NCBI GenBank assembly: GCA_016783445.1
Contig: JADHWO010000002.1
Coordinates: forward strand, 25,464 to 89,463
Direction: 5' to 3'
DNA: 64,000 bases
From: Candidatus Aminicenantes bacterium
GTDB taxonomy: Bacteria; Acidobacteriota; Aminicenantia; Aminicenantales; Aminicenantaceae
Below the pieces are notes generated by a model that made no database searches, was not told the DNA's origin, and saw nothing but the letters and a program-made list of their open reading frames with translations. Of this stretch, positions 5,262-50,263 are shown piece by piece (the stretch's first letter is position 1; each line of letters begins with the position of its first letter). A program made the position numbers and the translations under genes.

Positions 5262-5387
5262 TTCATCAAGCCCCTACGTGAAAAACAGGATTGCCGCGGC
5301 TCTTCGGACTCGTTATGACATTTGATAAAATGGGGCCTGTCCCTATAACTTATCCCTATTATTATGAGAAGGATCCCTGAGTATAAA

Positions 5388-30070: not shown

Positions 30071-30135
30071 CCATATTTTTCTATGATAGAAGCAAAAGGA
30101 AATTGGGTCTTGAATTTATCTTTGGAGGGATACAT

Positions 30136-31479: not shown

Positions 31480-31701
31480 TTGAACCGGGCCACAATAAAT
31501 GACTCTTTTTAAAGATTGAGCCGCCTTTTTTTAGAGAGTTCAAGAGGCCTGTATGCCGGATTGCTGGCCTGCTTGGCTTCGAAATTGTTGAAGATACCTG
31601 ACTGCTCATAATCAGGCTTTTAAGGAGTTTATAATAAAATATGAAAATTTTCGTTAAAAATAATATAATAAGAGGTCTTTTAATATTAATAGGAGAGCAA
31701 G

Positions 31702-32997: not shown

Positions 32998-33087
32998 AGA
33001 ACTTTTCCAAGAGTACACTGCTTTTTTAGTAAGCTCCGACTTTTAAAGGTTATAAATAAATATCAGCACCCAGGGGGATCTTGCTAT

Positions 33088-34425
33088 TTACTTTATTTTC
33101 ACTTCTTGTTTATTTTCATCAAAGGTTACACGTTTCCCGGTAAACATCGCAGCGATTGTCATGCAGAGAGCTACAGAGTGGTTGTACCCTGCACGGATAT
33201 CCGCGTTTGGCTTCTTGCGTTTGCGCACACACTCCATCCAGTTGCGCATGTGGGCAGAGGTTGCATTATCGGTTCCAGTGATTGCGGCTGTTTCCACTCC
33301 CCCTGCCTCTGCAATAGCTATTTCCGGCAGTCTGTTTTCCTCCATCCCCATAACTTTTGCCATTCTCTGAGATAGCCCACCTTTAGGGGTAATCATATTT
33401 GTGTCCAGATTAAGTGTGCCGCCATTAGAGAAATACAGTTCTTTGGTCCCTCCTGCCGAGTTTGTCTGCCTGGAAGAGTACACAACCTGGAAGCCTTTGG
33501 ACATATCATTGAGTGGACCGTAGTCAAAAACAGCTGTAAGTGTGTCAAAATTTTTCCGTCCATCCTTCCATAGGTAGACCCCACCATTAACTACTACACT
33601 TCTCGGGTGCGGTAAATCTGTAAACCAGTGGACCGTGTCAATCTGATGTACCATCCATTGACCAGGAATTCCGGACGAATACGGCCAGAACAGGCGGTAT
33701 TCGATATATTTGCGTGGATCCCAGGGTTCAAAAGGGCGGTTCATGAGGTACCTTTTCCAGTCAACATCTTTCTCTTGAAGAGCAGCTACCAGGTGAGGGC
33801 GTCGCCACCGGCCAGGCTGGTTTACGTTCCATGTCATATCCACTGCTACAATATCTCCAAATCGTCCTGAGCGGATAAATTTATCAGCCTGAATGTAATT
33901 GGTTGCGCTCCTGCGTTGAGTGCCTATCTGAACAATCCTGTTAGACTTCTGAACAGCTTTGAGCGAAGCGCGCGCATCTTCCCCTGTGTTTGCAAACGGC
34001 TTTTCTACATAAGCATCACAGCCTGCCTCGACAGCCTGGATGCAGTGCAGGGCATGCTGGAAATCCGCTGTGCTTATGATCACAGCATCTACTTTTCCAG
34101 AGCCATAAAGTTCCTCATTGTTACGTTTAGCAACAATTTTCCTTCCTGTTTTTTCCTGAATAAATTCCACTCCCTCCCTACGTCGGCGGTTCCAGATATC
34201 TGAAACAGCCATAATCTCAAAATTGAGCTCCTGAGTATAATTCAGCATAGCCGGAATAAGTGCATGCCGTGCCCGGTCTGAAAAGCCGACGATTCCGACC
34301 CGTACGCGGTCATTGGACCCGAGGATTCGACTGTAACTTGCGGCAGGCAAACCAAACGCGAGCCCGGCTGCCCCTGTAGAAACAGTCTTGATGAAATTAC
34401 GGCGGGTTATCTTTTTTTTCGTCAT
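33088..34425 (-). CDS. Tat-exported Gfo/Idh/MocA-family oxidoreductase
   Basis: The Tat motif is TRRNFIKT. The Rossmann segment is VRVGIVGFSDRA. Confidence 0.85.
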   Translation of the reverse strand: MTKKKITRRNFIKTVSTGAAGLAFGLPAASYSRILGSNDRVRVGIVGFSDRARHALIPAMLNYTQELNFEIMAVSDIWNRRRREGVEFIQEKTGRKIVAKRNNEELYGSGKVDAVIISTADFQHALHCIQAVEAGCDAYVEKPFANTGEDARASLKAVQKSNRIVQIGTQRRSATNYIQADKFIRSGRFGDIVAVDMTWNVNQPGRWRRPHLVAALQEKDVDWKRYLMNRPFEPWDPRKYIEYRLFWPYSSGIPGQWMVHQIDTVHWFTDLPHPRSVVVNGGVYLWKDGRKNFDTLTAVFDYGPLNDMSKGFQVVYSSRQTNSAGGTKELYFSNGGTLNLDTNMITPKGGLSQRMAKVMGMEENRLPEIAIAEAGGVETAAITGTDNATSAHMRNWMECVRKRKKPNADIRAGYNHSVALCMTIAAMFTGKRVTFDENKQEVKIK

Positions 34426-34495
34426 TTTTGCCTTCCTTTTTTAATGGCCATAGGACCTTTATTTTAGCATGCCCTGTGTACAGTGAGAATAAGCT

Positions 34496-35395
34496 TTAAA
34501 AAAGCTTTATTTCACGAATCTTGATGTTGCGAAACCAGGCCGCATCAGTATGGTCCTGTAGAATTATGTGGCCTTTTCGTTTATCTGCAAAGCCCTGAAT
34601 ATTGCGGTATTTACTTGCGGCGAGTAAAACGTCCATTTGAGGCGTTTCCAGGTCGTATTCCAGTACTTTTACTCCGTTGAGCCAGTGTTCTCCATGGTTT
34701 CCACGGAAAATGATTCGTGCTGTGTTAAATTTGCCTACAGGTTTAAGTGTTTTTCCCTCAGGCGCAATTAGGTCATAGAGTGCGGCAGCCGTTCTGTTGC
34801 CGCCTTTCTGTGCATCGGGATGCCTGTCATCATCAAGTATCTGGTATTCAAATCCAAGCGCTGCATACTTGGGTGGATAGGATGTAGACATCTCCTCTGA
34901 AACATTATACTTGATGCCACTGTTTCCGGCAGGGCAAATTTTCCATTCCAGATAGAGTTCGAAGTTCTCAAATGACCTGGCAGTCATGATGTCTCCTCCC
35001 TGAAGAGGTTGCCCGTCTTTTTGCAACGGCACTTCCCCGCTGGGCACCTTTTTGATTGCGCCATCTTCTATGACCCAGGGGCCATCAGGGATTCCGTCCC
35101 TTCCAAGGCCTTGCCATCCGGTGAAGGTTTCACCGTCAAAAAGAAGTATCCAGCCCTCTGCTTTTTCTGATGAGGTGAGTACGTTAAGCTCTAGCGTGGT
35201 TGTGGATAAAGGTTCGGTCTCCTGATTTGATACACAGGATAGAGAGAAAAAGATTAAAATGAGAGAAACAGCTGCAATACACATTAAGTTAAGTCTTAAC
35301 AAAAACATGTTTTTTTTAAGGCAATCTGACATGGCTTGAATTATCCTTTCTGGGTTTTTAAAGTTGCGGCTCAATTTTTTGGGATTGAATCTCAA
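34496..35395 (-). CDS. DUF1080 (3-keto-disaccharide hydrolase-like, LamG/jelly-roll) protein, secreted
   Basis: GWILLFDGETFTGW is present, and the C-terminus FRNIKIREI is typical of PF06439. It sits upstream of the Gfo gene in the same operon. Confidence 0.75.
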   Translation of the reverse strand: MRFNPKKLSRNFKNPERIIQAMSDCLKKNMFLLRLNLMCIAAVSLILIFFSLSCVSNQETEPLSTTTLELNVLTSSEKAEGWILLFDGETFTGWQGLGRDGIPDGPWVIEDGAIKKVPSGEVPLQKDGQPLQGGDIMTARSFENFELYLEWKICPAGNSGIKYNVSEEMSTSYPPKYAALGFEYQILDDDRHPDAQKGGNRTAAALYDLIAPEGKTLKPVGKFNTARIIFRGNHGEHWLNGVKVLEYDLETPQMDVLLAASKYRNIQGFADKRKGHIILQDHTDAAWFRNIKIREIKLF

Positions 35396-35456
35396 TATTT
35401 AAAATATTTTTAAGAAGCATCAATTTATTAATATCAATTTAAAAAGAAAAAGAGGA

Positions 35457-35482
35457 AATGTCAAATGTTGAGATGCGACCCC
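35457..35482 (+). promoter_or_regulatory. Copy of the 26-bp motif AATGTCAAATGTTGAGATGCGACCCC, in the divergent promoter region
   Basis: The same motif recurs at 46000-46028 and inverted at 20508-20535. Confidence 0.4.
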
Positions 35483-35648
35483 ATTCTTCTTTTATCTTTT
35501 TTGCAAAGATGCCTCCAACTTTGTATAGTATGAGCGTTCGGGTTTTTGACTCGTAATCGGTGAGCCTAAGGGACAGAAACTTGTGGGCAGGCTCTACCGC
35601 AAACCTTGGGTTCTCCCCAGGGTGTAAAGCCTTAAAAAGGAGAAGGGC

Positions 35649-36500
35649 ATGGGAAAAACAACAAGAAGGGATTTTATCAGATTAGCTGGAGTGGGAGTGG
35701 CAGCTGTATCATTGTCGCCTGTCCTGGAGGGCTCCACAAAAAGCCGCCATGAAAAAAATGAAAAAGAGCATAAGCGGTTAAAACTTGGAATGGCTTCTTA
35801 CACTTTCCGGAAGTTCAATCTTGAAGATACGTTAGCCATGACAAAAAGGCTGGGATTAGAGACAATTGCTTTTAAGAGCTTCCATCTTGCTCTGGAAAGC
35901 ACTGGGGAAAAGATAAAGGCTGTAGCAGAGAAGGTCAAAGCAGCCGGACTTGAGCTCTACGGCTGCAGTGTGGTTTACATGCAGAATGAGGAGGAAGTTT
36001 ATCGTACGTTTAATTACGCAAAAGCAGCAGGGATGAAGGTCATAATTGGAGTTCCTAACCACGAGCTTCTGGATTTAGTCAACAAGAAGGTTCAGGAGTT
36101 TGATATTCAATTAGCGATTCATAATCATGGCCCTGGTGATAAGCTCTATCCAACACCTGAGAGCGCTTACCAGAAGATTAAAAATCTTGATCCCCGTATA
36201 GGATTGTGTCTTGATATCGGGCATACACAGCGCTCTGGCATCGATCCGTCAGACTCCGCAGAGAAGTTCGCTGATAGGCTGCTCGATGTGCATATCAAGG
36301 ATGTCACCGCTGCATCTAAAGAGGGGAGACCTGTGGAGGTTGGCAGGGGTGTAATCGATATTCCCAAGTTTCTCCGCACTTTGCTCAAGTTGGATTACAA
36401 AGGAATTGTGTCGCTTGAATATGAAAAAGATGCCGATGACCCTCTTCCAGGAGCTGCGGAATCCCTCGGCTATGTCAAAGGTGTCCTGTCTGTTATCTAA
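35649..36500 (+). CDS. Tat-exported xylose-isomerase-like TIM-barrel protein (sugar-phosphate isomerase/epimerase family)
   Basis: The Tat motif is TRRDFIRLAG. An AP-endonuclease-2/TIM-barrel pattern is present. Confidence 0.8.
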   Translation: MGKTTRRDFIRLAGVGVAAVSLSPVLEGSTKSRHEKNEKEHKRLKLGMASYTFRKFNLEDTLAMTKRLGLETIAFKSFHLALESTGEKIKAVAEKVKAAGLELYGCSVVYMQNEEEVYRTFNYAKAAGMKVIIGVPNHELLDLVNKKVQEFDIQLAIHNHGPGDKLYPTPESAYQKIKNLDPRIGLCLDIGHTQRSGIDPSDSAEKFADRLLDVHIKDVTAASKEGRPVEVGRGVIDIPKFLRTLLKLDYKGIVSLEYEKDADDPLPGAAESLGYVKGVLSVI

Positions 36501-37681: not shown

Positions 37682-39817
37682 TTACTTTTCTTTTAGGCTT
37701 TCAATAATTTTCTTAATTTTTTCTTGTTTTGGATTAATCTCTAACGATTTCTTCCAGGCTTGTAAAGCCTGCTTATTATCTCCAAGCGCAAAATAGCATT
37801 CTCCAATTGAATTCAGGATCTCTACAACATTGCCCTTATGTGAAAGAGCTTTCTGATAATAAGAGACTGCCTCTTCAAGCTTGCCCAATTCATGAGATGT
37901 TTTTCCGAGATTGTAATAGAGCTCAAAATTCTCTTTTCCTGCTTTATCAAAAGGGATTAGGATTTCTCTTACTCTCTGGAATTCTTTCAAGATCAAGAGA
38001 GCTCTCGCGTAGCTTAAAGCGTAATCCAATGAATCCGGCTTTCCTTTATAGGCTTTCGATAATTCTTCTTGGGCTTTTTGTATGTCTCCCTTGTTCAGAA
38101 ATTGATTCCCCAGGATATAAGAATAGTACGGATCATCAGCAGGTGGATTGGTCTGAGCGACAACCCATGATCCGGGAAAAGGTTTTGTTGTGACAGAGAG
38201 TGCTTTTCTTTCAGAAAGATATTTTCGCCCCTCTCTGTCGAGGAGGGAAACCTCCACTGTGTATATTCCAGGTGAAAATTTATCCAGGAGGATTTCTTCG
38301 AGAAAATCGCGGCTGTTTTTGTATTCATTGATGTTCCTGTGTTTCGTCTGAAATATCTGCTCACCCGAATAAAACGTAAATTCCAGTATTCCCTCTTCTT
38401 TCAATCTCTGCTTTAAACCATAGATCTGAAAGAAAAGGAACAAATTGTCTTTTTCAAGGAATTTGTTATTGATGGATGGATAGAGCTGAAGATTCCCCAC
38501 CTGAAAGGCTCTGTTTGACTGACTGTATGGTGAATCTCTGTTGACTTTCCTGGATAAGATGACAGGGCTCATCTTTAGATTTTCACCCCTGGGCACAGAG
38601 ATCTTTTTTTCGAAAGAGGTAAATTCTTTGGTGACCATGTTTTCAAATAAGAGGTTGAAGGTGTAATTGCCCGGGATCATAGGGAAAGAATCATAGAGAA
38701 AAAAAGAACTAGTCTCCAATATTTTCAACTCATCCTTTCTTAATTCAAGCGGAACATTCCTTCCCCGTTGAAATATGGTCTTCCCCTCTGCATCTGTCAA
38801 ACGGATGGAAGTTTTTAAATCAGAAAAATATTTATCCTGGTAGAAATCGACAGATAAAGTTTCCGGCACAATGATGTAATTCACAAAGAAAATGCCGGAG
38901 GGATCCTGGATAATGCTAACCTTCGACTGGTTCCCCATGTAATAAACGGAATAACTGACTTCAACTACCGCTTTATGCTCTAAAAACTCATAAGCGTAGT
39001 CATCATTGACTTTCTTATGAGGATAGGTTTCAACTTCACCCACTAACATCGAAGACTGGAGTATTTGTTCCGGGCCGCTTCTTCCTGGGAAGTTTGAAAA
39101 TACAGCCTCAGCCAACATGAACCCAATACTGGATTTTATTATCATGTAAGCATCTATATCTCTTTTGTCTAAATTATAAGCCTTTAATCTTTGTAATTCT
39201 TCTGCGTCCTGTGGGGATCTTTCCGCCAGAGGCGATATCGATTTTGCTTTAGAAAGCACGTCCAATCTCTGAGTGAAAGGGACTAAACTTTTTGGCCCAT
39301 CTGCAAGCGGATTATAAAGTTCAAACTCTCCCGCTCCAAATTTCTGAAAGAACAGGAGTCGAAAGTTTGGTGCCTGCCCCAGTCCCGGATTGCCCTGGTA
39401 ATACCAGATTTCTATAGGGTAAATGTCTGCTGATATGTATCTATCCACATTGGAAGGCCTGCCCAGCATTATGTAAAATCTTCCTCTATCCGTTCTCCAG
39501 CCCTTTAAGGGTGTACTTCTTCCGAATTTTTTATCCGTATATTCAATCCTTCTGTAGTGTTCTTCTTTGAATTCATTCCGGGATGTGGTTGGAGTGGGAT
39601 CTCTTTGCCGCCAGAATTCTTCAATAAAAAGATTCCTTTCTCTATCCGTTTCCAGCTTGTAAAAAACCTCCTTTTCCTTAGGGGTAATGATGTAGACGAC
39701 TTCTTCTTTTATCCATTTCTGGAATTTTTTAGGTAAATCGGGATTTTTCTTTGAATAGAGTATAAAGGGAAAGATAAATACAAATAATAATATCGCGCTG
39801 GTAATTTTTAATTTCAT
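37682..39817 (-). CDS. GWxTD-domain protein with C-terminal TPR repeats, secreted
   Basis: KGWRTDRGRFYIMLG contains the GWxTD motif. There is a signal peptide after the internal Met (MKLKITSAILLF). TPR repeats are at the C-terminus. Confidence 0.7.
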   Translation of the reverse strand: MKLKITSAILLFVFIFPFILYSKKNPDLPKKFQKWIKEEVVYIITPKEKEVFYKLETDRERNLFIEEFWRQRDPTPTTSRNEFKEEHYRRIEYTDKKFGRSTPLKGWRTDRGRFYIMLGRPSNVDRYISADIYPIEIWYYQGNPGLGQAPNFRLLFFQKFGAGEFELYNPLADGPKSLVPFTQRLDVLSKAKSISPLAERSPQDAEELQRLKAYNLDKRDIDAYMIIKSSIGFMLAEAVFSNFPGRSGPEQILQSSMLVGEVETYPHKKVNDDYAYEFLEHKAVVEVSYSVYYMGNQSKVSIIQDPSGIFFVNYIIVPETLSVDFYQDKYFSDLKTSIRLTDAEGKTIFQRGRNVPLELRKDELKILETSSFFLYDSFPMIPGNYTFNLLFENMVTKEFTSFEKKISVPRGENLKMSPVILSRKVNRDSPYSQSNRAFQVGNLQLYPSINNKFLEKDNLFLFFQIYGLKQRLKEEGILEFTFYSGEQIFQTKHRNINEYKNSRDFLEEILLDKFSPGIYTVEVSLLDREGRKYLSERKALSVTTKPFPGSWVVAQTNPPADDPYYSYILGNQFLNKGDIQKAQEELSKAYKGKPDSLDYALSYARALLILKEFQRVREILIPFDKAGKENFELYYNLGKTSHELGKLEEAVSYYQKALSHKGNVVEILNSIGECYFALGDNKQALQAWKKSLEINPKQEKIKKIIESLKEK

Positions 39818-39876
39818 TTTTCTTTTTTTGTCTCTTACATTAATCATTAACAGAAAAATAGAATGAGAAGTCATTT

Positions 39877-41049
39877 TTAAAATTTAAATCTTATTCCTGA
39901 GCGAAAGCTGAAGCCACTGAAATCAAAAACGCCTTTTCTTATAATTTTATAACCGGATGGTTCTTCTTCAAGTATGGTCAAATAAGGATAGTTATCATCT
40001 TCCAGATAATAAAGCACTCCTTCTTCTACTGAATCAACATATCTCCATACATCCCACACTCTATCTGTTTCCTTCCCTTTGAAGTTGGAAACCTTGGCAT
40101 ATCTCCCCCGGCCTTCGATAAAAAAGATAGCTCTATGGGTTAATTTGATTTCAAAGCTGATCCCCCCGTGAAATCCGAGACCTTTGGCACTTGTTTTGTG
40201 ATAAATGCTATTCAGATTCGTCCAGTCCTTATCAAGGGTAAGGGAATACTTAGTCAGATAGAGTGCTGCTCCACAATTAAAGGAGACAGCAAATAAGCGA
40301 TGAATGGGAAGGGAAAAATACAATCCAAGTCTGATAGGAACAGCAGTTATTTTGGGCGTACTACGCAATTGTTCTAGCCCTAATAAGCCCGCTCCTGACA
40401 CAGTTAGAGTATTTGTTTCAGACGCGCTAATGTAACCTGCTCCTAGTCCAATTCCAATTTGAGGGGTGAAGTTAAAAATGATATCTCCTGAGATATCAAC
40501 TGCATTGTGGAAGGATTCTGTCTTGCTTTCCAGGGAGTAGCCTGCGGAAGAGAGAAAATCAGCATTTGAATCATACAAACCTTCGGTCCCTTTAGTTATG
40601 TCCCCACCAAAAAAATAATTCAGGCCTCCACTGAGCTTAACGCTCAATCCTATACCCTGGAAAAATTCAGGTTCTTCTTCCCAAAAATCCGGTTCTTTAG
40701 TAGTCTTTTCCTTTATTATGTCCACAGCGTTTGAGTGAATGTAGCCTATAAGCACAAACCCTTCCTTGTCAGGTCCTATGATCACCCGGAACCACTCTCC
40801 TGCCTTTTCATATGATTTTAGAATCGTTCCTTTCAAGGCGCTGGTTACGACCGGACTTTTTATATCGGGCTCCAGTCGAATATCTGCCTTCTCAACCTTG
40901 ATTTTTAGCTCCCATTCAGAAGAGCTCGAATTTAATGCATAAATATTGAGCGTTAAAAGACATACTACTAATAAAATTAGAAAGGGGTTTATTCTGCTTA
41001 TTTTAGTACTCCTATATACTATATTATCTCTAAAATAATTATTGTGCAA
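39877..41049 (-). CDS. Secreted protein with an N-terminal SH3b-like domain and a probable C-terminal outer-membrane beta-barrel
   Basis: There is a signal peptide, amphipathic beta strands and a C-terminal ...IRFKF. Confidence 0.45.
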   Translation of the reverse strand: MHNNYFRDNIVYRSTKISRINPFLILLVVCLLTLNIYALNSSSSEWELKIKVEKADIRLEPDIKSPVVTSALKGTILKSYEKAGEWFRVIIGPDKEGFVLIGYIHSNAVDIIKEKTTKEPDFWEEEPEFFQGIGLSVKLSGGLNYFFGGDITKGTEGLYDSNADFLSSAGYSLESKTESFHNAVDISGDIIFNFTPQIGIGLGAGYISASETNTLTVSGAGLLGLEQLRSTPKITAVPIRLGLYFSLPIHRLFAVSFNCGAALYLTKYSLTLDKDWTNLNSIYHKTSAKGLGFHGGISFEIKLTHRAIFFIEGRGRYAKVSNFKGKETDRVWDVWRYVDSVEEGVLYYLEDDNYPYLTILEEEPSGYKIIRKGVFDFSGFSFRSGIRFKF

Positions 41050-41159
41050 TCTTTATGCCAGATGATAACAGGCTAAAATATTTTTTTTCAAGCTTATAAT
41101 TGTCCATGATTATGTACATGTGTAATTGATTGAGAACGATGCTGAAGACCCCCTTTTTA

Positions 41160-44100
41160 TTATTTTATTTCTTTGATTCTGATGTTGCGGAACTCCACAT
41201 GCGAGCCATGGCCGAGGAAACCAATGTGTCCCTTCTCCCGTTTGAGTCCTGGATGGTCTTTTCCATCTAGTGTAGTGGGTGTGCTGGCTTTATCGATATT
41301 TGCATCAACGATAGTTACACCGTTGAGATTGACGATGATTTTTCTGCCCCTGGCAATAACTTCCTCATAATTCCACTCGCCGACAGGTCTGAGATAACCG
41401 CGTTTGGCTGGAACAATACCGTATATGGAACCGTGATACTGGTATGGCTCTAGGTCTTTATAGATGTGAGCTGTATTGTCCAGGATTTGAAGTTCCATGC
41501 CTACATAGGCCGCATCTCCTGTCAGAGGAGCGCGAATCCCCAGCCCGTTGTTTGCACCGGAAGTAAGTTTAAACTCAAACCGCAGGATATAGTCACTGTA
41601 TTCCTTTTCTGTGTACAAATTCCCGCTTCCGCGTTTCGGATAAATAACGATTTTTCCATCTTCGGCAACATAGCCGGTTGTCTCACCGGTCCAACCTGTA
41701 AGATCCTTCCCATTAAATAACAGCTCAAAACCCTCGGCAGTTTCCTGCTCAGTCAGGCCCTGGGCTCCCTTCTCAGGGATAATCTCACGGATGAATATGT
41801 TACGGAAATAGAGCGGACTGTTATGTGATTGAAGTTCGATCTGGCCTGTCGGGTAGATCGGTTTATCCTGCTCCCAATAATTTTCCATTACTACATTATC
41901 TACCATCAGTACATCATTTAAGTAAACCGTAACCTTTTCACCTGTCATCTTGATTCGGAAAGTGTTCCATTCGCCAATAGGATTATCCACACATTTTAGC
42001 GGCTTACTCGGACCTTCTTTGTTATTGTACAGACCGCCGGAACCCTCAGGCCATTGTTCTGGATCCCAGATCTGCACTTGAGGCGACCCGCGGAGATAAA
42101 TGCCGCTGTCTCCACCCTTCTCAATTTTCCAATCAACAAGCATTTCGAAATCAGTGTAATCTTTTAAAGTACAGAGGCTCTCTCCTTTGCCGTCAAAAAC
42201 AAGTATCCCGTCTACAACCTTCCAGTGTTCACGCATCGATAGATCTGCCTCTTCCTGCGCTTTAGTCAATTCTTCCGGAGTCATTTTTGTTCGACTGATG
42301 GGATCACCGACAAGGCCTTTCCATCCGGAAAGATCTTTCCCGTTAAAAAGGGATACAAATCCTCCTTGCTCCAGAATGGCGCTGATATATTTCTCAATCC
42401 TTTCCTGTTCATAACTGTCTTCAATGAGCCCGACCGATTTTTTCAGCACAGATATCACTTCAGCTCCAAAGAGTCCTCTTGCTGTCCCGGGTTGGGGCAA
42501 TGCAATTTCTGCCACGGTTATGGCTGCTTGAGCCTGTAAATCCTGGTCACCAAGATAGGCTGCAACAAGCCTCAGTGAGTTTAGGATTTTTACACTGCCC
42601 AATCCCTTTAGAATATGATTTTTTTCTTCTGTTTCTGCTGCAATATCCAGGGCTTCTTTGAGTATGCTGAGCCTCCTTTCTGGAGTAAGTTCTGATTCTA
42701 TTACGAGCCTGACATAACCCTGAATAGCAAAAAGACGGTGTTCCTGTTTTTTTGTAGTGCTGTAAATATTAAACAATTCCTCTACAGCGCTAATGTCAGG
42801 CCACTCAGCCAGAGTGGAGACCGCCGCATCTTGAATAATTGGGTCTTCGGTTTTTGTCTCTTCTATTACGGTTTGAAGTGCGTTCTTTCCACCAATTTTT
42901 GCAAGAGGCCTCAGCAGATCAATCCGTTTTGTGTCAGTGGTTTCCTCCAGCGTTTCCAGTATCAGGTCAGCGCGCTTTTCCGGATCAATAATTAAATTTG
43001 CACTGGCCACCACAGCATTTTGAGCAAGCGATATTTCGGTGCTGTTTTGAGCTTCAAGAAGAATTTTTATTAAATGTGGCAGGTCTGTTTCACTTGCCAG
43101 ATTTTCAAGCCCGGCAAGAGCGGCAAGCCGGACTGATTCGTGATCACTATTTATTTGAGTAAAAACTGTATCTACATGTTCCTTTGCCAGCCGCTCAGAT
43201 AGGATTTCTATAAGAGCTACCTGAGCTAGTGGCGGCATTTCTTCCAAGATTTCGACCACACCAGGAACAACCTCGCTGCTTGGAAATCTTTTAAGAACTT
43301 GTTTTGTAGTATTAATTTCGTCCGCCTGATCTGTGTGCAAAGAGGTGAATAATTCAGGAAGAACATCACTTCCTCCAAGATGGGCCAAAGCTGGAATTGC
43401 TGCCAGCCGGATAATTTTTTCCTCACTCTTTAATGCCTGTAAAAGTGTAGGAAGTGCTGATATGTTTTTGCGGTACCCGAGCATTGTGATTATTTCTGCC
43501 TGAGTTTCTGTTGGAACCTCGGTCATTTTTTTTATCCATTGTGCGGTAGCGTATTCTCCTTGGAAAGTGCCGGCAAGTTCAATTGCTCTTGATCGAAGTT
43601 CTTTGTTTGGATTTTCCATGGAAGACAGGAGGTCTCCAAAAGCCCTCTCGCCTATAGCGTTTACCAGTATACTTAAAGCCAAACACGGGACATTGCTTTC
43701 ATGAGGGGATGTGTAGTTTTTTATCAGATTGCGGCAGATCCTTGCACACTGCTGCTTTTTCCCAGATTCAGCGAGACGCTGGGCGTATAATAAATAAAGT
43801 GAAGGAGCTTTTGATCTTTCGTAAGATGAGGAAGCTACTGAAATACTGTCTAATACCTTTTCAGACTTCGGATCGCCGATATTTGCCAGAGCGTATAAAG
43901 TTACGTGGCGCAGTTTTTCGTTTCTACTGGAAACATATCTGGTGATTTTTTTCACAGCTGCCTTACTGCGAAACTCACCAAGGGCTTTTATGATCGTGAT
44001 CCTGTTTGTTTCTGATACAGAGCGAAGGGATTTTAACAAAGCCTTCTCAGCCTCAGGTGTTCGGATGGCAAGCAGTGCCTGAGTTGCCGGTTCGCATAAC

Positions 44101-44549
44101 CTTTTGTCCTTGAGAAATATTCTTAGGGGTTTAACGGATTCGTTTTTACCGACAAGTTGAAGCTGACGGATTAAAAATGCTTTTACCTCACTATCTTTTT
44201 GTGACTCCAGAGCTTTCAAAAGAGTTCTGGCATAGATTCCTCGTTCCTGTTCAGCCCCAGCTCGGTGGGCATATACAGATAGTGCATTCAGTGCGAATCG
44301 GACCCTGGTGTCATCACCTGTTCCCGGCGGAACCAGCATGCGGCAAACCTCCTGAATTCCTTCCTGACCAAGTTGAATGAGTTCAGAGGCTAACTTATCT
44401 CTTTCAGCAGTGTTTTGAGCGGGAAATTTGGCAAGTGTATCAACAACTTTTGTCTTTGAAGTTCTTACATCTTCCTGTCCGATCACCAAAGATGAGGCTA
44501 ACAGCAATGCTGTTATCAAAATAAGTATTGTTTTTTTCTTGTTTTTCAT
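41160..44549 (-). CDS. Large secreted protein with N-terminal HEAT/ARM repeats and two C-terminal DUF1080 (3-keto-glycoside hydrolase-like) domains
   Basis: There is a signal peptide after the internal Met (MKNKKKTILIL). Two DUF1080 ends are present, YFRNIFIREI and EFRNIRIKEIK. No CxxCH motif is present. Confidence 0.7.
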   Translation of the reverse strand: MKNKKKTILILITALLLASSLVIGQEDVRTSKTKVVDTLAKFPAQNTAERDKLASELIQLGQEGIQEVCRMLVPPGTGDDTRVRFALNALSVYAHRAGAEQERGIYARTLLKALESQKDSEVKAFLIRQLQLVGKNESVKPLRIFLKDKRLCEPATQALLAIRTPEAEKALLKSLRSVSETNRITIIKALGEFRSKAAVKKITRYVSSRNEKLRHVTLYALANIGDPKSEKVLDSISVASSSYERSKAPSLYLLYAQRLAESGKKQQCARICRNLIKNYTSPHESNVPCLALSILVNAIGERAFGDLLSSMENPNKELRSRAIELAGTFQGEYATAQWIKKMTEVPTETQAEIITMLGYRKNISALPTLLQALKSEEKIIRLAAIPALAHLGGSDVLPELFTSLHTDQADEINTTKQVLKRFPSSEVVPGVVEILEEMPPLAQVALIEILSERLAKEHVDTVFTQINSDHESVRLAALAGLENLASETDLPHLIKILLEAQNSTEISLAQNAVVASANLIIDPEKRADLILETLEETTDTKRIDLLRPLAKIGGKNALQTVIEETKTEDPIIQDAAVSTLAEWPDISAVEELFNIYSTTKKQEHRLFAIQGYVRLVIESELTPERRLSILKEALDIAAETEEKNHILKGLGSVKILNSLRLVAAYLGDQDLQAQAAITVAEIALPQPGTARGLFGAEVISVLKKSVGLIEDSYEQERIEKYISAILEQGGFVSLFNGKDLSGWKGLVGDPISRTKMTPEELTKAQEEADLSMREHWKVVDGILVFDGKGESLCTLKDYTDFEMLVDWKIEKGGDSGIYLRGSPQVQIWDPEQWPEGSGGLYNNKEGPSKPLKCVDNPIGEWNTFRIKMTGEKVTVYLNDVLMVDNVVMENYWEQDKPIYPTGQIELQSHNSPLYFRNIFIREIIPEKGAQGLTEQETAEGFELLFNGKDLTGWTGETTGYVAEDGKIVIYPKRGSGNLYTEKEYSDYILRFEFKLTSGANNGLGIRAPLTGDAAYVGMELQILDNTAHIYKDLEPYQYHGSIYGIVPAKRGYLRPVGEWNYEEVIARGRKIIVNLNGVTIVDANIDKASTPTTLDGKDHPGLKREKGHIGFLGHGSHVEFRNIRIKEIK

Positions 44550-44577
44550 TTGAATATCTCCATGTAAAAAAGCTGCC

Positions 44578-45855
44578 TTATAGATGCCATGGTGCACGCA
44601 TGGGTTGAGCGATTAAACGGTTTGCCTCCACATCATTAATGAACCGCTGTTTGTCCGGGTCAAAATGAAGAGGTCTTCCCAATCGCACAGCAATTTTGCT
44701 CAGATTGACGATTGTACAGGAACGATGTCCATTTTCTTCATTTAAGGCAAACTTTTTTCGGGTTCTAACAGCCTTGATAAAGTCGGTCACCTGAGGTTCT
44801 GGGTCAGGAAGAGTAGCCAGTTTTTCTTTTAAATTGGGAATATCGGATTCAAGGCCTTTGAATAACTTTCCATCGGGCCCTTCGATGAACGCTGCATCTT
44901 TATCCTTGTTTTCGCCGTCAAGGATTATTTCACAGCCATCAGCATATTTTAATTGAATCCGGCGCCAGCTTCCACAAGCGTCAGGATGCTGCTGGGGACA
45001 GTCAGCTTCAATTTCGACCGGACTGGTGTCATCTTTGTCAAGAATATATTGAACCGGGTCAAGGTAATGCATACCCATGTCTCCAAGTCCGCCGCCATCA
45101 TAATCCCAGTATCCACGGAATGTGCCGTGAACTCGATGCTTGTTATAAGGTTTATAGGGAGCAGGACCGAGCCAGAAATCATAATCCAGTTCTTTAGGAA
45201 CAGGTTCGGGTTTTAAATTTGTTTCTCCGCTCCAGTAAAATTTCCAGTCAAAACCGGTTATGCCGCTGACCGTAACTTTTAAAGGCCAGCCCAATATGCC
45301 GCTCTGGACCAGTTTTTTTATTGGCTTGACAGTAGTGTCAAAACCGTAGAACTGATCTCTAAATCTGAACCAGGTATTCAGCCTGAAAATTCTTCCATTC
45401 TTCTGCACAGCTTCCACAATTTTTTGTCCTTCGCCGATTGTTCTTGTCATAGGTTTTTCACACCAGATGTCCTTGCCTGCTTCTGCTGCAGCAACGGCGA
45501 TGAGTGCGTGCCAGTGTGGGGGGGTTGGGATATGGACAATGTCAATATCAGACCGCTCAAGGACTTCACGAAAATCCTTATAGCCTGCAACTCCGGGCCC
45601 GGCAATTTTTTGTGCCATGTTTAAATGTTTTTCATCAACATCACATACTGCCAGAAGTTTAGCCCCCGGATAATGAAGGTGCACCCGTCCCATACCGCCT
45701 ACGCCAATTACAGCTTTTGTAAGCTGGTCGCTGGGTGCTGTGTAGCCTGCGCCTCCCAGAACGTAACGTGGCACTATTGTGAGGGCAGCAGTGGCAGATA
45801 TTGTATGCTTAATAAAATCCCTTCGGGTTATTTGTTTTTTTCTTGTCATATCCAT
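44578..45855 (-). CDS. Tat-exported Gfo/Idh/MocA-family oxidoreductase
   Basis: The Tat motif is TRRDFIKHT. The Rossmann segment is KAVIGVGGMG. It is in an operon with the HEAT-DUF1080 gene. Confidence 0.85.
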   Translation of the reverse strand: MDMTRKKQITRRDFIKHTISATAALTIVPRYVLGGAGYTAPSDQLTKAVIGVGGMGRVHLHYPGAKLLAVCDVDEKHLNMAQKIAGPGVAGYKDFREVLERSDIDIVHIPTPPHWHALIAVAAAEAGKDIWCEKPMTRTIGEGQKIVEAVQKNGRIFRLNTWFRFRDQFYGFDTTVKPIKKLVQSGILGWPLKVTVSGITGFDWKFYWSGETNLKPEPVPKELDYDFWLGPAPYKPYNKHRVHGTFRGYWDYDGGGLGDMGMHYLDPVQYILDKDDTSPVEIEADCPQQHPDACGSWRRIQLKYADGCEIILDGENKDKDAAFIEGPDGKLFKGLESDIPNLKEKLATLPDPEPQVTDFIKAVRTRKKFALNEENGHRSCTIVNLSKIAVRLGRPLHFDPDKQRFINDVEANRLIAQPMRAPWHL

Positions 45856-45999
45856 CTCCTGTTTTTTGGAATGTTATGACCGGGTATTTACGGCAAACGC
45901 GGCTCGTTAATAATCCAGGCTATTTTAAGCCAGCATATTATACAGCATTACTATAAGAATTTCTTTTTTTGCATGCAAGAGCTTTCCTCCTTTTTGCTG

Positions 46000-46028
46000 T
46001 AATGTCAAATGTTGAGACGCGACCCCTT
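46000..46028 (+). promoter_or_regulatory. Copy of the 26-bp motif GTAATGTCAAATGTTGAGACGCGACCCC, in the divergent promoter region
   Basis: It lies between the Gfo gene (-, start 45855) and the GHMP kinase gene (+, start 46149). Confidence 0.4.
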
Positions 46029-46148
46029 TTTAACTTTTGCAGCTTTATTTTTTCGATTTTAATAATCCTGAAGACATAATTGATTGGCATACTGTTGTTG
46101 AATATGTAAAATAAGGGACCTTGAGGAATGTCCCTATAGAACAGGAAA

Positions 46149-47144
46149 ATGATTATAAATAATCGTGCCTATGCCAGGGCTGGCGTGTTTGGTAATCCTT
46201 CCGATGGATATTTCGGCAAGGTTATAGCGATATCGGTTAAAAATTTTTATGCAGAGGTCACACTCCGGGAATCCCGGGATCTCCGGATTGAGGAGAAAAA
46301 GCAGGACCTGAACGTTTACAGGAATATTCATGACCTTGTTAATAAGATCAACCTCTATGGATACTATGGTGGAGTTCGCCTGATCAGGGCAACGATTAAG
46401 AAGTTCCATGACTACTGCATGAGCCAGGATATCAGGCTGGAAGATAAAAACTTCACAATCCAGTATGATTCCAATATACCCCGCCAGCTTGGCTTAGGAG
46501 GCTCCAGTGCGATCATTACTGCAGCAATTCGCTCCTTGATGGAATATTATGAGGTAAAAATTCCCATAAAGATGCTTCCCTCAATAGTGCTGGATGTTGA
46601 GCTTAAGGAGCTGGGAATCAATGCAGGTTTTATGGACAGAGTTATCCAGGTTTATGAGGGTTGTATCTATATGGATTTAGATTCTGAGATAATAAGGGAG
46701 AAAGGACACGGAATTTATGAACGCCTGGATACAAAACTCATCCCTGAGCTCTATCTTGCCTACAAACCAGAACTGGGAAAAGTATCAGGGCATGTTTTAG
46801 ACGATATTCGAGCGGGATATGAAAAAGGGGATAGGTTGGTCATCAACACGTTAAAACGGATTGCAGAGATCGCAGAGATCGGGAAAAAAGCCCTGCTTCA
46901 TGGGAATATTGACGAGCTGCATGATTTGATGAACGAAAATTTTGACCTGCGAAGCAAGATCATGAAAATCAACGACAGCAATTTAGAGATGATACAGACA
47001 GCACGCCGGTGCGGGGCTTCGGCCAAATTTGCAGGCTCTGGCGGTTCTATCATCGGTATGTATAAAGATGATGATATGTTTTCCCGCTTAGCAAGTGAAC
47101 TGGAGAAGATCCAGGCCAAAGTTTTTAAACCCGTCATCGATTAG
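46149..47144 (+). CDS. GHMP-family kinase (sugar or small-molecule kinase)
   Basis: The ATP-binding motif is PRQLGLGGSSAIITAAI. Confidence 0.8.
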   Translation: MIINNRAYARAGVFGNPSDGYFGKVIAISVKNFYAEVTLRESRDLRIEEKKQDLNVYRNIHDLVNKINLYGYYGGVRLIRATIKKFHDYCMSQDIRLEDKNFTIQYDSNIPRQLGLGGSSAIITAAIRSLMEYYEVKIPIKMLPSIVLDVELKELGINAGFMDRVIQVYEGCIYMDLDSEIIREKGHGIYERLDTKLIPELYLAYKPELGKVSGHVLDDIRAGYEKGDRLVINTLKRIAEIAEIGKKALLHGNIDELHDLMNENFDLRSKIMKINDSNLEMIQTARRCGASAKFAGSGGSIIGMYKDDDMFSRLASELEKIQAKVFKPVID

Positions 47145-47147
47145 GCT

Positions 47148-47425
47148 GGATTATTCACGAGTAGACGTGAATTATTCACGAGTCGAGATTGCCGCAGATG
47201 CGAGGCGCAGGGTATGAAGCTGTGGTTCTCCACTGCGAATGCGCTGCAACGAAACAGATGCGGTAATACCGGCTCGCCAGGAGGGTAAAAAATGCCGAAA
47301 ATAAAATTAATAATAAGCCCTTGGGAGAATATTTGAATGTTAATTTTGAGAGATAATCAATGTAACAGGTTAATATTTTTAAAAATAAAAAATAGTTTCG
47401 GCAGTTTTTATGAATTGTTCACGAG
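47148..47425 (+). repeat. Copy C of the roughly 250-bp structured repeat. It fills the whole GHMP-dctP intergenic region.
   Basis: It aligns to 13583-13834. It ends ...tcggcagtttttatgaattgttcacgag, immediately before ATG 47426. Confidence 0.7.
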
Positions 47426-48424
47426 ATGAGGAATTTTAAAAGAAGGGTAAAGCTATTCACACTTTTTGTGCTTGCTTCCTACTTCTTTCTCAGTACAGGC
47501 TGTGGAGCCGATAAAAAGATTAAAATCATTAAGCTGGCACACGGCCTGAATCCTAAACATCCGGTTCACATGGCCATGAAATTTATGGCAGAGCGTGTAT
47601 TGGAGAAATCCGGCGGAAGACTGAGAATTGATATTTATCCAAGCGAACAACTGGGTTCTGAGCGAGAATGCCTGGAACTTCTACAAATAGGTAGTCTGGG
47701 CATGACAAAAGTCTCTTGCAGTGTGCTGGAAGGCTTTGTGCCTGCTATGAGTATTCTGAGCCTACCATATATTTTTTTGAATGAAGAACACCGTTTTAAA
47801 GTATTGGAAGGAGAGATCGGACGGAAACTGCTTTTGGAAGGCGAGAAATACTGGTTGAGAGGACTTTGTTATTATGATGCGGGAAGCAGGAGCTTCTACA
47901 CAAAAAATAAGCCCATATTATCCCCTTCAGATCTGGACGGAATGAAAGTCCGGACCCAGGAGAGTTCCACCTCAATGAGAATGGTCCAGGTCCTGGGGGG
48001 TTCACCCACACCGATTGCATGGGGAGAGCTTTATTCAGCCCTTCAGCAGGGAGTTGTGGATGGAGCGGAAAATAATCCACCGAGTTTTTTTCTTTCAAGA
48101 CATTTTGAAGTCTGCAAATTTTACTCTCTTGATGAGCACACGGGTGTACCGGATGTCCTTTTAATCAGCACAAAAATCTGGCACGAGCTTACGCCCGAGT
48201 TACAAGAGATACTTCAGGAAGCAGCCTATGAATCAGAACAGCACCAGAAGATATTATGGAAAAAAGCCACTCAAGACGCATTAGAGCAGGTTCAAAAGGC
48301 CGGGGTAAAAATATATTATCCGGATAAAGACCTTTTTGCTGAAAAAGTAAAATCCATATATGAAGCGTACAAAGCAAAACCGGAAATATATCAGCTTATT
48401 AAGCAAATTAAGGCGGTTCAGTGA
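47426..48424 (+). CDS. dctP: TRAP transporter substrate-binding protein (DctP family)
   Basis: There is a lipoprotein-like signal, and KLAHGLNPKHPVHMAMKFMAERV is typical of DctP. There is no SD, because the repeat abuts the start codon. Confidence 0.85.
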   Translation: MRNFKRRVKLFTLFVLASYFFLSTGCGADKKIKIIKLAHGLNPKHPVHMAMKFMAERVLEKSGGRLRIDIYPSEQLGSERECLELLQIGSLGMTKVSCSVLEGFVPAMSILSLPYIFLNEEHRFKVLEGEIGRKLLLEGEKYWLRGLCYYDAGSRSFYTKNKPILSPSDLDGMKVRTQESSTSMRMVQVLGGSPTPIAWGELYSALQQGVVDGAENNPPSFFLSRHFEVCKFYSLDEHTGVPDVLLISTKIWHELTPELQEILQEAAYESEQHQKILWKKATQDALEQVQKAGVKIYYPDKDLFAEKVKSIYEAYKAKPEIYQLIKQIKAVQ

Positions 48425-48945
48425 TGTTGGCAAAAGCTAAGTATAGAGTCGATAAGATATTAGCATGGCTTCTTATAGTCCTTATGGCTGCAAGCGTGCT
48501 CAACGTGCTGTGGCAGGTATTTACACGCTTTATACTTAAGAGTCCAAGCTCATATACAGAGGAATTAGCCCGATATCTCTTGATCTGGGTTGGCTTGCTT
48601 GGTGCAAGCTATGCTGCCGGTCAGAAAATGCACCTTGCGATTGATATTATTTTGGAGAAACTGAAGAGCAAAACAAAAAAAAATGTTGAGCTGTGTATCC
48701 AGATTATTATATTTCTTTTTGCACTGTTCGTAATGGTTTTCGGAGGCTTTCGTCTGGTTGTGATTACATTACACTTGAATCAAATATCTGCGGCTCTGCA
48801 GATAAAACTAGGATATGTCTATTTAGTGCTTCCCATAAGCGGACTCCTGATGATGTTTTATGCGGGAATCTTTTTTATAGAAAAGGTCCGGGGGATAACT
48901 GAGAGGTCAGTTGAGCATCAGACCGGGATAATAAAAGGAGTCTGA
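48421..48945 (+). CDS. dctQ: TRAP transporter small permease (DctQ)
   Basis: It has 4 TM helices. It overlaps the dctP stop by 4 bp. Confidence 0.75.
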   Translation: MMLAKAKYRVDKILAWLLIVLMAASVLNVLWQVFTRFILKSPSSYTEELARYLLIWVGLLGASYAAGQKMHLAIDIILEKLKSKTKKNVELCIQIIIFLFALFVMVFGGFRLVVITLHLNQISAALQIKLGYVYLVLPISGLLMMFYAGIFFIEKVRGITERSVEHQTGIIKGV

Positions 48946-48961
48946 AAAAGCGGGAATAGGC

Positions 48962-50263
48962 ATGGAAATTCTGCACATATGTGTACTTGTTGGCAGTTTT
49001 ATTTTGCTGTTATTTATCGGGGTCCCCATTTCTTTCAGCATAGGTATCGCCACGATTTCAACAATGCTGCTCAGTATAGATGCTGGGCCTTCCTTAACAA
49101 CCGTTGCACAGCGTATGGCCACTGGTCTGGATAGTTTTGCACTGTTGGCTATACCTTTTTTTATCCTTGCTGGTCAACTTATGAACAGGGGAGGGATTGC
49201 AAGGCGGCTTATTGATTTTGCTAAGGTTTTAGTGGGGATGTTCCCGGGCGGCTTGGCCTTTGTCAATATTATGGCTGCCATGCTTTTTGGTTCGATCTCA
49301 GGATCAGCAGTTGCATCTTCGGCAGCTATAGGTGGATTTATGGTCCCTATGATGAAAAAAGAGGGATATGATCTGAATTACAGCGCGGCTGTAAATATTA
49401 CTGCGGCTACAACAGGGCTAATTATCCCCCCAAGTAATATTCTAATCGTCTATTCTCTGGCCAGTGGGGGTGTTTCTATAGGGGCGCTCTTTCTTGCTGG
49501 ATATCTTCCCGGGATATGCATTGGGCTGTTTTTGATGGTTGTAGCAGGGATAATTGCTTATAGGAAGAAGTACCCGGTTGCCATGAAGGTTAAACTCACG
49601 GACGGCATTCTGCGGTTTCTTGACGCTCTGCCCAGCCTTTTCTTAATCATATTGGTTGTTGGCGGGATTGTGGCAGGTTTTTTTACAGCCACTGAGGCGT
49701 CGGCTATAGCTGTTCTCTACACATTTATTCTGTCATTCCTGATTTACAGGGAGGTCAAATGGAAAGAACTCCCAAAAGTCCTTCTGGATTCAGCTTCCAC
49801 AACAGCTATTGTTTTGCTGCTTATTGGGGTTTCCATGGGCATGTCCTGGGTAATATCCTACGAGAATATTCCCCAAAATGTCAGTGAAACTCTCATCGCG
49901 ATTTCAAATAGCCGGATAGTTGTCTTATTGATCATCAATGTGTTCCTCTTGATGTTAGGAACCTTTATGGATATAACACCTGCTGTTTTAATTTTTACAC
50001 CTATATTTCTGCCTGTGATGATACAAATGGGCATAAATCCGATTCATTTTGGCATCATTATTGTCTTGAATCTATGTATAGGCTTATGTACACCACCGGT
50101 GGGGACTGTTCTTTTTGTAGGATGTGGGGTTGCCGGAATAAGCATAACCAAGGTTATTAAGCCGCTTCTGCCCTTTTTTTTCGCTATGCTCGTTGCGCTT
50201 CTTTTAGTTACCTTTATCCCGGAAATCACCATGTTTCTCCCCAGGCTATTTGGATACGGATAA
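48962..50263 (+). CDS. dctM: TRAP transporter large permease (DctM)
   Basis: It is 433 aa with about 12 TM helices and the DctM pattern (FFILAGQLMNRGGI). Confidence 0.9.
   Translation: MEILHICVLVGSFILLLFIGVPISFSIGIATISTMLLSIDAGPSLTTVAQRMATGLDSFALLAIPFFILAGQLMNRGGIARRLIDFAKVLVGMFPGGLAFVNIMAAMLFGSISGSAVASSAAIGGFMVPMMKKEGYDLNYSAAVNITAATTGLIIPPSNILIVYSLASGGVSIGALFLAGYLPGICIGLFLMVVAGIIAYRKKYPVAMKVKLTDGILRFLDALPSLFLIILVVGGIVAGFFTATEASAIAVLYTFILSFLIYREVKWKELPKVLLDSASTTAIVLLLIGVSMGMSWVISYENIPQNVSETLIAISNSRIVVLLIINVFLLMLGTFMDITPAVLIFTPIFLPVMIQMGINPIHFGIIIVLNLCIGLCTPPVGTVLFVGCGVAGISITKVIKPLLPFFFAMLVALLLVTFIPEITMFLPRLFGYG

Follow-up and report, generated by a model that had tools for sequence, protein, structure and literature searches.

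What does a two-gene operon do when it couples an exported sugar oxidoreductase to a pair of putative sugar-processing domains carried on a large helical repeat, and what is the repeat for? The question is raised by a 64,000-nucleotide (nt) stretch of contig JADHWO010000002.1 from a Candidatus Aminicenantes bacterium (assembly GCA_016783445.1, positions 25,464 to 89,463), hereafter the window, in which a Gfo/Idh/MocA-family gene (Gfo) with a twin-arginine translocation (Tat) signal is followed by a gene for a protein of 1129 amino acids (aa), the scaffold protein, in which a HEAT-repeat alpha-solenoid precedes two tandem DUF1080 domains (d1 and d2). We propose, with a probability of about 0.5, that this cassette is a self-contained periplasmic glycosidase of two genes, working by oxidation, elimination, hydration and reduction on a scaffold. 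The finding itself is real: the system is known in kind, and its scaffolded form is new, widespread and unstudied, literature searches having turned up no description of a HEAT-fused DUF1080 protein or of a Gfo-scaffold pair.

The Gfo and scaffold genes form a conserved operon

Both genes lie on the minus strand with Gfo upstream, and 28 nt separate the Gfo stop codon (44578-44580) from the scaffold ATG (44549). When the window Gfo was used in tblastn searches, 81 of 83 scaffold loci proved to have an ortholog, 65-85% identical, immediately upstream and in the same orientation, the only two without it (L035 and L083) having no upstream DNA, and the median distance between the two genes was 35 nt (79 related loci). 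De novo clustering of the open reading frames (ORFs) in these loci recovered just Gfo and scaffold as conserved, the next real cluster being confined to 19 loci. The association also holds in the reverse direction. A Gfo-side scan of metagenomes yielded orthologs of 70% identity or more in 80 loci, and in 71 of the 73 that had at least 600 nt of downstream DNA, and were therefore counted, the next gene encoded the solenoid; among the 47 with enough DNA to classify the downstream form there were 38 HEAT-d1-d2, six HEAT-d1, one HEAT-d2 and two HEAT-only proteins. No Gfo-scaffold fusion was present among the 120 top-ranking Gfo relatives, every one of them 418-433 aa long, or the 150 best scaffold clusters. 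The Tat motif of Gfo and the secretory (Sec) signal of the scaffold protein are universal across the related loci. Together with the ORF list, the short gap and the synteny in both directions strongly support the minus-strand operon, Gfo first, and the gene coordinates that an earlier note on this DNA had put forward, and the pairing is conserved far beyond chance.

Full-length relatives of the scaffold protein numbered at least 473 among the matches in the protein collection, where they are named 'HEAT repeat protein', 'DUF1080 domain-containing protein' or 'family 16 glycoside hydrolase', and they occur in at least 594 species-level genomes in a scan of one genome per species, a set skewed to d1-bearing proteins since the scan patterns were derived from domain 1. 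Identity to the window protein is 47-64% in Aminicenantes in the species scan, up to 70% for metagenome proteins in the protein collection, and 39-44% in Bacteroidota; Planctomycetota and others also carry relatives. Cultured carriers include Chitinophaga polysaccharea, C. vietnamensis, Pedobacter gandavensis, P. cryoconitis, Draconibacterium sp. IB214405, Gaoshiqia hydrogeniformans and Splendidivirga corallicola. Judged from these searches, the HEAT-2x DUF1080 architecture, which the earlier note had regarded as unusual, is widespread and uncharacterised, and predominates within a modular family.

The solenoid is the constant part of a modular family

A search with the solenoid alone (residues 30-725) of 1.84 billion cluster representatives (clusters at 50% identity) returned 1830 clusters at E<1e-30, nearly all of them aligned end to end at the N-terminus. 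What comes after the solenoid varies. Proteins of about 720 aa have nothing there; others have an F5/8 type C domain (F5/8C; about 860-890 aa), F5/8C with one DUF1080 domain (about 1060 aa), a single d1 or a single d2 (about 920 aa), d1-d2, which is the majority form, or d2-d1 (about 1130 aa), or d2-d1-d2 (1329 aa). A Gfo with the PF19051 domain (422-424 aa) directly precedes a scaffold-only protein (P0134, locus L084), a scaffold with F5/8C (P0168, L085) and a scaffold with d1 (P0122, L087). Locus L085 (5001-8825) is a split form, in which Gfo and the scaffold with F5/8C are followed by separate d1-type (59% identical) and d2-type (67% identical) frames; the gene caller gave only one DUF1080 gene of 190 aa there, and a frameshift or a missed gene is possible. 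In the complete Aminicenantes genome CP070750.1 (L001, 15987-19372), a second PF19051 Gfo precedes a 942-aa ThuA-HEAT protein with its ThuA domain at the N-terminus, whose solenoid is homologous to and colinear with that of the window (25% identity over 293 residues, E 4e-19); this is the same scaffold arrangement with a ThuA domain, a domain of the 3-keto-trehalose pathway.

Because the pair persists while the C-terminal modules vary, Gfo and solenoid are the invariant core of the family and the catalytic or binding modules are exchangeable. From this invariance we infer that the Gfo protein, rather than a polymeric substrate, is the partner bound by the solenoid.

The N-terminal 690 residues are predicted to be a HEAT solenoid

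An AlphaFold2 (AF2) model of the scaffold protein, built from 30 full-length homologs, had a mean predicted local distance difference test score (pLDDT) of 83 and a predicted template modelling score (pTM) of 0.51, and placed 40 helices at residues 40-728 (pLDDT about 90), followed by two beta-sandwich domains. HEAT_2 of Pfam matches four stretches (E 6.6e-37), the HEAT region matches alphaRep structures in the PDB, and Foldseek searches of the PDB with the helical part retrieved CAND1, karyopherin-beta2, SF3B1 and Kap121p. In this prediction the N-terminal ~690 residues are an alpha-solenoid of the HEAT/ARM type, with continuous repeated helix pairs, as the earlier note had supposed. The top Foldseek match was BT3469 (4jqt), a tandem of two DUF1080 domains, with further matches to BT2 (8tda), AL2 (8v31) and a '3-keto-glycoside eliminase/hydratase' (8rr2, 9fbe). 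The scaffold protein has no CxxCH haem motif, again as had been noted, and contains 7 Cys altogether; the NCBIfam search of the window proteins gave no match to TIGR02603 or TIGR02604, presumably haem-binding HEAT/DUF1080 dehydrogenase-like proteins of the Planctomycetes-Verrucomicrobia-Chlamydiae (PVC) type. Its Sec-type signal was assigned by reading the sequence, and in most relatives the N-terminus is likewise hydrophobic and lacks a lipobox.

Of the parts of the protein the solenoid changes fastest, its mean column conservation being 0.37-0.52, whereas the DUF1080 domains, the most conserved parts, reach 0.7-0.85. For Gfo, conservation is high over the full length (0.8-0.95), orthologs are 65-90% identical across phyla, and those in the scaffold loci are more conserved than the scaffold protein itself. 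Aromatic residues are also scarce in the solenoid, at 4.4%, and two of its 689 residues are Trp. A fast-evolving, aromatic-poor solenoid beside a strongly conserved Gfo fits the view that Gfo is the partner of the solenoid. The earlier note had suggested that the scaffold binds a polymeric substrate or partner proteins, and it is the second suggestion that the evidence favours, with Gfo as the protein to which it points.

A polysaccharide-binding solenoid would belong with DUF1080 domains that act as classical Koshland endo-glycanases of the GH16 type. Such a reading would agree with the 'family 16 glycoside hydrolase' name that NCBI gives to relatives, with the GH16-resembling fold of DUF1080 and with DUF1080 proteins proposed or reported as endo-xanthanase or lichenase, including the proposal for Thermogutta THTE_1561 on xanthan; however, it is highly improbable, given that the GH16 catalytic motif (regular expression E-[ILV]-D-[IVAF]-[VILMF](0,1)-E) has zero matches in the whole scaffold protein, that the obligate partner is a dehydrogenase and no carbohydrate-active enzyme, and that the scarcity of aromatic residues is unlike glycan-binding surfaces.

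The Gfo protein resembles glucoside 3-dehydrogenases

The window Gfo consists of PF01408 and PF19051 (Pfam, E 2e-146) and shows the hallmarks of the Gfo/Idh/MocA family, namely the Rossmann GxGxxG motif (GVGGMG at residue 51), EKP at 133 and the catalytic D-x3-H (DMGMH at 259). At its N-terminus, TRRDFIK is followed by the hydrophobic stretch HTISATAALTIV, and RRxF[LI]K is found in essentially all orthologs with an intact N-terminus; in the NCBIfam search the window Gfo stayed below the threshold of TIGR01409. Its description as the third Tat-exported Gfo of the window is correct, all three Gfo proteins having twin-arginine motifs.

The nearest solved structures in a PDB sequence search were 8tdf (E 7.5e-30) and 8tdh (E 4e-26), both of the glucoside 3-dehydrogenase AL3 of Alistipes. 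Residues Q168, D259 and H263 are the equivalents of AL3 Gln161, Asp248 and His252, with Tyr349 of AL3 outside the aligned part, and the top-scoring NCBIfam model is BT_2158_fam (NF058561, 'glycoside 3-dehydrogenase'), matched over profile positions 1-285 of 487. By these comparisons the protein looks AL3-like without being an equivalog, and probably has a different substrate; by analogy it would be a putative glycoside 3-dehydrogenase with non-exchanging NAD(P), presumably exported in the folded state. An AF2 model of Gfo (homologs 79-100% identical) had a mean pLDDT of 54 and was too poor to be used as evidence, as was a Foldseek search with it, which returned generic Gfo folds with AL3 at rank 2 but indistinguishable from the others.

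Enzymes of the Gfo/Idh/MocA family use many non-glycosides, and other sequence matches of the window Gfo include inositol, levoglucosan and UDP-sugar dehydrogenases, with Zymomonas GFOR among the sequence and fold matches. These matches, the loss of the AL3 residues Arg192 and Trp195 and the existence of scaffold-only variants would suit a cassette that is no glycosidase at all, one that oxidises a free sugar, a cyclitol or a sugar derivative and uses DUF1080 as a dehydratase or isomerase type of enzyme on the keto product, or one in which the scaffold links the dehydrogenase to another redox partner. We consider this decidedly unlikely, since the scaffold has no cofactor or haem motif, no third gene for an electron acceptor is conserved, and the nearest sequence relative of Gfo is a glucoside 3-dehydrogenase.

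The DUF1080 domains keep the core of the BT2 pocket

PF06439 (DUF1080, '3-keto-disaccharide hydrolase') matches two stretches, at about residues 730-921 and 930-1129 (E 2.4e-91, 305 bits against a gathering cutoff of 26.8), which together with the two beta-sandwich domains of the AF2 model establishes the tandem that the earlier note had described. The first domain has a 25-residue helical insert at residues 750-775, and the nearest PDB entries to the second are 4jqt and 3hbk. The two domains are only 27% identical; they are old, separate subtypes and no recent duplication. The term double-hydrolase that had been applied to them is outdated: BT2157, initially described as a 3-keto-trehalose hydrolase (PMC8121099), and AL2 are DUF1080 enzymes with 3-keto-alpha-glucoside lyase and hydratase activities (bioRxiv 10.1101/2024.03.25.586180).

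Pocket residues of BT2 were mapped (Table 1) with a MAFFT alignment that combined the references, d1 and d2, and for each of these two domains nine members of the family. The BT2 numbering was rebuilt from PDB alignments, in which adding 25 to the 3osd index gives the native number, as a check on E164, Q166, Q273 and H275 confirmed. The single DUF1080 protein encoded elsewhere in the window (34496-35395, in the gene set called Block 1 below) has all eight residues, with Asp at E103.

Table 1. Equivalents of the BT2 pocket residues in the three DUF1080 domains of the window
BT2 residue	Block 1 DUF1080	d1	d2
E103	D (position conserved as Glu/Asp)	absent	absent
N134	N	D814	N1000
E164	E	Q824	E1019
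Q166	Q	Q826	Q1021
Y190	Y	Y841	Y1043
K245	K	absent	D/E/N
Q273	Q	Q907	L1112
H275	H	H909	H1114

In both domains the retained pocket residues are invariant across phyla, and the substitutions differ between d1 and d2, each being fixed within the family. The d1 substitutions D814 and Q824 are family-invariant, and such an exchange of amide and carboxylate (N134 to D814, E164 to Q824) could preserve a metal site. The pocket core is therefore kept, but the full BT2157 set is present in neither, and the lack of catalytic residues that the earlier note named as refuting its reading is neither cleanly seen nor cleanly excluded.

Departure of both domains from the BT2157 residue set might instead indicate that they are non-catalytic lectin modules, similar to CBM66, that target a Gfo-scaffold complex to a glycan, with the later chemistry taking place elsewhere, for example in the Block 1 enzymes. 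DUF1080 does overlap CBM66, and relatives of the scaffold protein have F5/8 type C (galactose-binding, CBM32-like) or nothing after the solenoid. Nevertheless we regard this explanation as unlikely: the residues that are invariant across phyla are the metal- and sugar-binding ones of BT2, the adjacency of Gfo and DUF1080 is a hallmark of 3-keto pathways, and the d1 and d2 subtypes recur jointly, fused or split, in 38 of 47 loci, which suits complementary catalytic steps better than redundant binding.

A proposed redox-neutral pathway on a scaffold

The closest precedent is that of AL3 and BT3, periplasmic Gfo enzymes with tightly bound, non-exchanging NAD that oxidise glycosides at C3. They are returned to the oxidised state by 3-keto sugars, and when none is provided in vitro they come to a halt in reduced form; in vitro the loose BT/AL enzymes work very slowly if no re-oxidant is added (bioRxiv 10.1101/2024.03.25.586180). 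We postulate that in the cassette the Tat-exported Gfo, loaded with NAD(P), would oxidise the glycoside at C3, one DUF1080 domain would act as a 1,2-lyase and eliminate the aglycone or leaving sugar, a DUF1080 domain would hydrate the ensuing 2-hydroxy-3-keto-glycal, and the same Gfo would reduce the 3-keto sugar with regeneration of NAD+, the net outcome being a redox-neutral, non-Koshland hydrolysis. Because the cassette has no TIM-barrel (triosephosphate isomerase-type) lyase, d1 and d2 may share out the lyase and hydratase steps, or may cover both anomers. The solenoid would dock the Gfo oligomer and keep the reactive 3-keto intermediates close to it, and return of the 3-keto product to Gfo would prevent the non-exchanging cofactor from being trapped as NADH. 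Such a scaffold would deal with a genuine problem, the slowness of the loose BT/AL enzymes when no re-oxidant is added.

Several observations weigh against this proposal. With respect to Gfo, the window protein scores only 163 bits with BT_2158_fam, for which the equivalog cutoff is 750 bits, and the sugar-binding Arg192 and Trp195 of AL3 correspond, in a gapped part of the alignment, to W204 and Y207. With respect to the DUF1080 domains, neither has the complete BT2157/AL2 residue set: K245 is lost in both, Q273 is replaced by Leu in d2, and N134 and E164 are replaced by Asp and Gln in d1. The BT2 residues E103, N134, E164, Q166, Y190, K245, Q273 and H275 have themselves been described only as 'possible' active-site residues. 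In the AF2 model the d2 pocket is of low confidence, with pLDDT below 50 at residues 1000-1036, and the arrangement of the domains is unreliable, as the pTM of 0.51 indicates. Scaffold-only variants show that the Gfo-scaffold pair also exists without an adjacent DUF1080 domain. Finally, as the BT/AL enzymes are reported to need no complex (bioRxiv 10.1101/2024.03.25.586180), the scaffold idea is an argument from synteny and modularity.

A physical complex between Gfo and the scaffold protein is accordingly put forward tentatively, the odds on present sequence evidence being somewhat against it. Rather more doubtful is the broader possibility that an ultra-conserved dehydrogenase exported by Tat has the solenoid as its obligate structural subunit, the two forming a modular periplasmic 'metabolon' that takes lyase, hydratase or glycan-binding modules (d1, d2, F5/8C, ThuA). 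If true, it would be the first bacterial HEAT-scaffolded machine for carbohydrate processing, it would channel unstable 3-keto intermediates to a dehydrogenase with non-exchanging NAD, and it would explain why the reconstituted BT/AL systems are slow in vitro.

The route of oxidation, elimination, hydration and reduction was established only in 2024, for loose sets of single-domain enzymes in gut Bacteroidota, and the cassette would be its compact, scaffolded two-gene form, present in hundreds of species, environmental as well as cultured, of the Aminicenantes, Bacteroidota and Planctomycetota. Should the scaffold hold the dehydrogenase and the DUF1080 domains together, it would show how a periplasmic enzyme with non-exchanging NAD is kept in redox balance, offer enzymologists a defined complex, and give a role to a large bacterial HEAT family (the 1830 clusters); the cultured carriers make the cassette directly testable.

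Features of the locus and neighbouring genes

Coordinates of the cassette and of its divergent neighbour are collected in Table 2. The true start of Gfo is probably the second ATG at 45849 and not that at 45855, because AGGAG stands 6 nt 5' of the former and an NCBI protein from a Candidatus Aminicenantes metagenome-assembled genome, 100% identical to the window Gfo, is 423 aa long. A promoter and terminator scan of 39700-47500 gave counts not above those of shuffled sequence and was uninformative.

Table 2. Features of the cassette and its divergent neighbour in the window
Feature	Positions	Strand	Basis and remarks
Scaffold gene, 1129 aa from ATG	41160-44549	minus	ORF list; a GTG further 5' would yield 1145 aa
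Gfo/Idh/MocA gene, ORF list version, 425 aa	44578-45855	minus	ORF list
Gfo gene, preferred start at second ATG, 423 aa, first cassette gene	44578-45849	minus	ribosome-binding site spacing and NCBI match
GGAG ribosome-binding site	44558-44561	minus	sequence read; 8 nt 5' of ATG 44549, within the 28-nt intergenic gap
Sec-type signal peptide, scaffold residues ~1-24, MKNKKKTILILITALLLASSLVIG	44478-44549	minus	sequence read
Tat motif TRRDFIK of Gfo	45808-45828	minus	sequence read
HEAT alpha-solenoid (predicted), residues ~40-728, about 40 helices	42366-44432	minus	Pfam, AF2, Foldseek
DUF1080 domain 1 (d1 type), residues ~730-925	41775-42362	minus	PF06439; pLDDT 80-89
DUF1080 domain 2 (d2 type), residues ~930-1129	41163-41762	minus	PF06439
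GHMP-family kinase, 331 aa, divergent neighbour outside the conserved cassette	46149-47144	plus	PF00288 and PF08544

A second group of related genes, Block 1 (30064-36500), comprises two Tat-Gfo genes (30064-31479 and 33088-34425, both with twin-arginine motifs), the DUF1080 gene of Table 1, an aminotransferase gene and a gene for a xylose-isomerase-like TIM barrel with a Tat signal, the nearest PDB entry to which is 3lmz (E 1.4e-72) and not the AL1/BT1 lyases. From its gene content Block 1 resembles an ordinary 3-keto-glycoside set of several genes. Identity among the window's three Gfo proteins is only 21-26%, and the cassette is therefore a separate system, not a duplicate of Block 1.

On the other side, 46149-50263 (plus strand) contains the GHMP kinase gene and, after a gap of 281 nt, a complete tripartite ATP-independent periplasmic (TRAP) transporter (DctP, DctQ and DctM). 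The kinase is divergent from the cassette, as the earlier note had it, but its association with the cassette did not hold: neither it nor the adjoining transporter has a homolog in any of 163 related loci, and both were ruled out as cassette members. The kinase has only weak matches to heptose and mevalonate kinases (best, a heptose phosphate kinase, E 9e-15), and the two together may form a unit for sugar-acid uptake and phosphorylation unrelated to the cassette. Downstream of the cassette and on the same strand are a gene for an SH3_3 plus outer-membrane beta-barrel protein (39877-41049, minus) and one for a 730-aa protein with GWxTD and tetratricopeptide repeats (37682-39874, minus); they were rejected as parts of the operon, not being conserved, with GWxTD alone recurring in one related locus.

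In a subset of Bacteroidales, a gene for a GH29 alpha-L-fucosidase with F5/8C comes after the cassette in 19 loci (L016 and about 18 others), 7-14 of which add genes for a ROK kinase, a major facilitator superfamily transporter, a 2-keto-3-deoxy-6-phosphogluconate (KDPG) aldolase and a glycerate-kinase-like protein, and the 11 loci of a related subset, of which L027 is typical, have a GntP permease. Being common to only 7-19 loci, these downstream genes (GH29, ROK, KDPG aldolase, GntP) were discarded as a substrate clue; they give at most a weak hint at fucosylated or acidic glycans, and no clear indication of the substrate.

Elsewhere in the window, positions 53679-56003 (plus) encode a 774-aa protein that unites a domain for binding cyclic nucleotides, a complete acetate kinase and a phosphate acyltransferase of the PTAC/PduL type, an unusual three-domain arrangement that, from its domains, would be a single-chain module regulated by cyclic nucleotides for converting acyl-CoA to acid and ATP. 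Three AcrB-type resistance-nodulation-division (RND) pump genes and a membrane-fusion protein gene occupy 423-12909, with a DDE transposase gene (3631-5115) between the first and second pump genes. An ORF of 629 aa without a Pfam match (20642-22531, minus) lies just downstream, on the same strand, of genes for an ATP-binding cassette (ABC) ATPase and a GntR-type regulator.

Comparison with known systems

In BT2156-BT2159 of Bacteroides thetaiotaomicron and AL1-AL4 of Alistipes, as in the cassette, a periplasmic Gfo gene adjoins a DUF1080 gene (Liu et al. 2021, PMC8121099; Nasseri et al., bioRxiv 10.1101/2024.03.25.586180). The DUF1080 fold and most pocket residues are also shared, and the same redox-neutral logic would be expected. 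Unlike these systems, the cassette has neither a TIM-barrel lyase nor a second Gfo, its DUF1080 domain is doubled into two diverged subtypes with altered pockets, and these domains are joined to a HEAT solenoid of 690 residues for which the BT/AL systems offer no parallel. The ThuAB and LacABC systems of Agrobacterium, Sinorhizobium and Caulobacter resemble the proposed cassette in forming a 3-keto-glycoside in the periplasm that is then handled by a DUF1080 enzyme, but LacABC passes its electrons to the respiratory chain, ThuAB is of the cytoplasmic type, and there is no scaffold (PMC9007349).

Among single proteins, BT3469 (4jqt, from structural genomics) is the top match, by Foldseek and by sequence, to the C-terminal 400 residues, and shares the tandem of DUF1080 domains; however, it is only 24% identical, lacks a HEAT scaffold, and has the canonical Q273 and K245 in its second domain, whereas d2 of the window has neither. 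GFOR of Zymomonas mobilis is, like the window Gfo, a Tat-exported enzyme of the Gfo family. It holds its NADP tightly and does not release it, and follows a ping-pong mechanism; it differs from the cassette in that its substrates are free sugars and that it has neither a partner protein nor a DUF1080 domain. As to the N-terminal 690 residues, the eukaryotic HEAT scaffolds (the A subunit of PP2A, CAND1, karyopherin-beta and SF3B1) are similar in fold and size, with sequence likeness restricted to the repeat; the window scaffold is set apart from them by being bacterial, periplasmic and fused to enzyme domains, and what it would have in common with them is the proposed role of docking other proteins.

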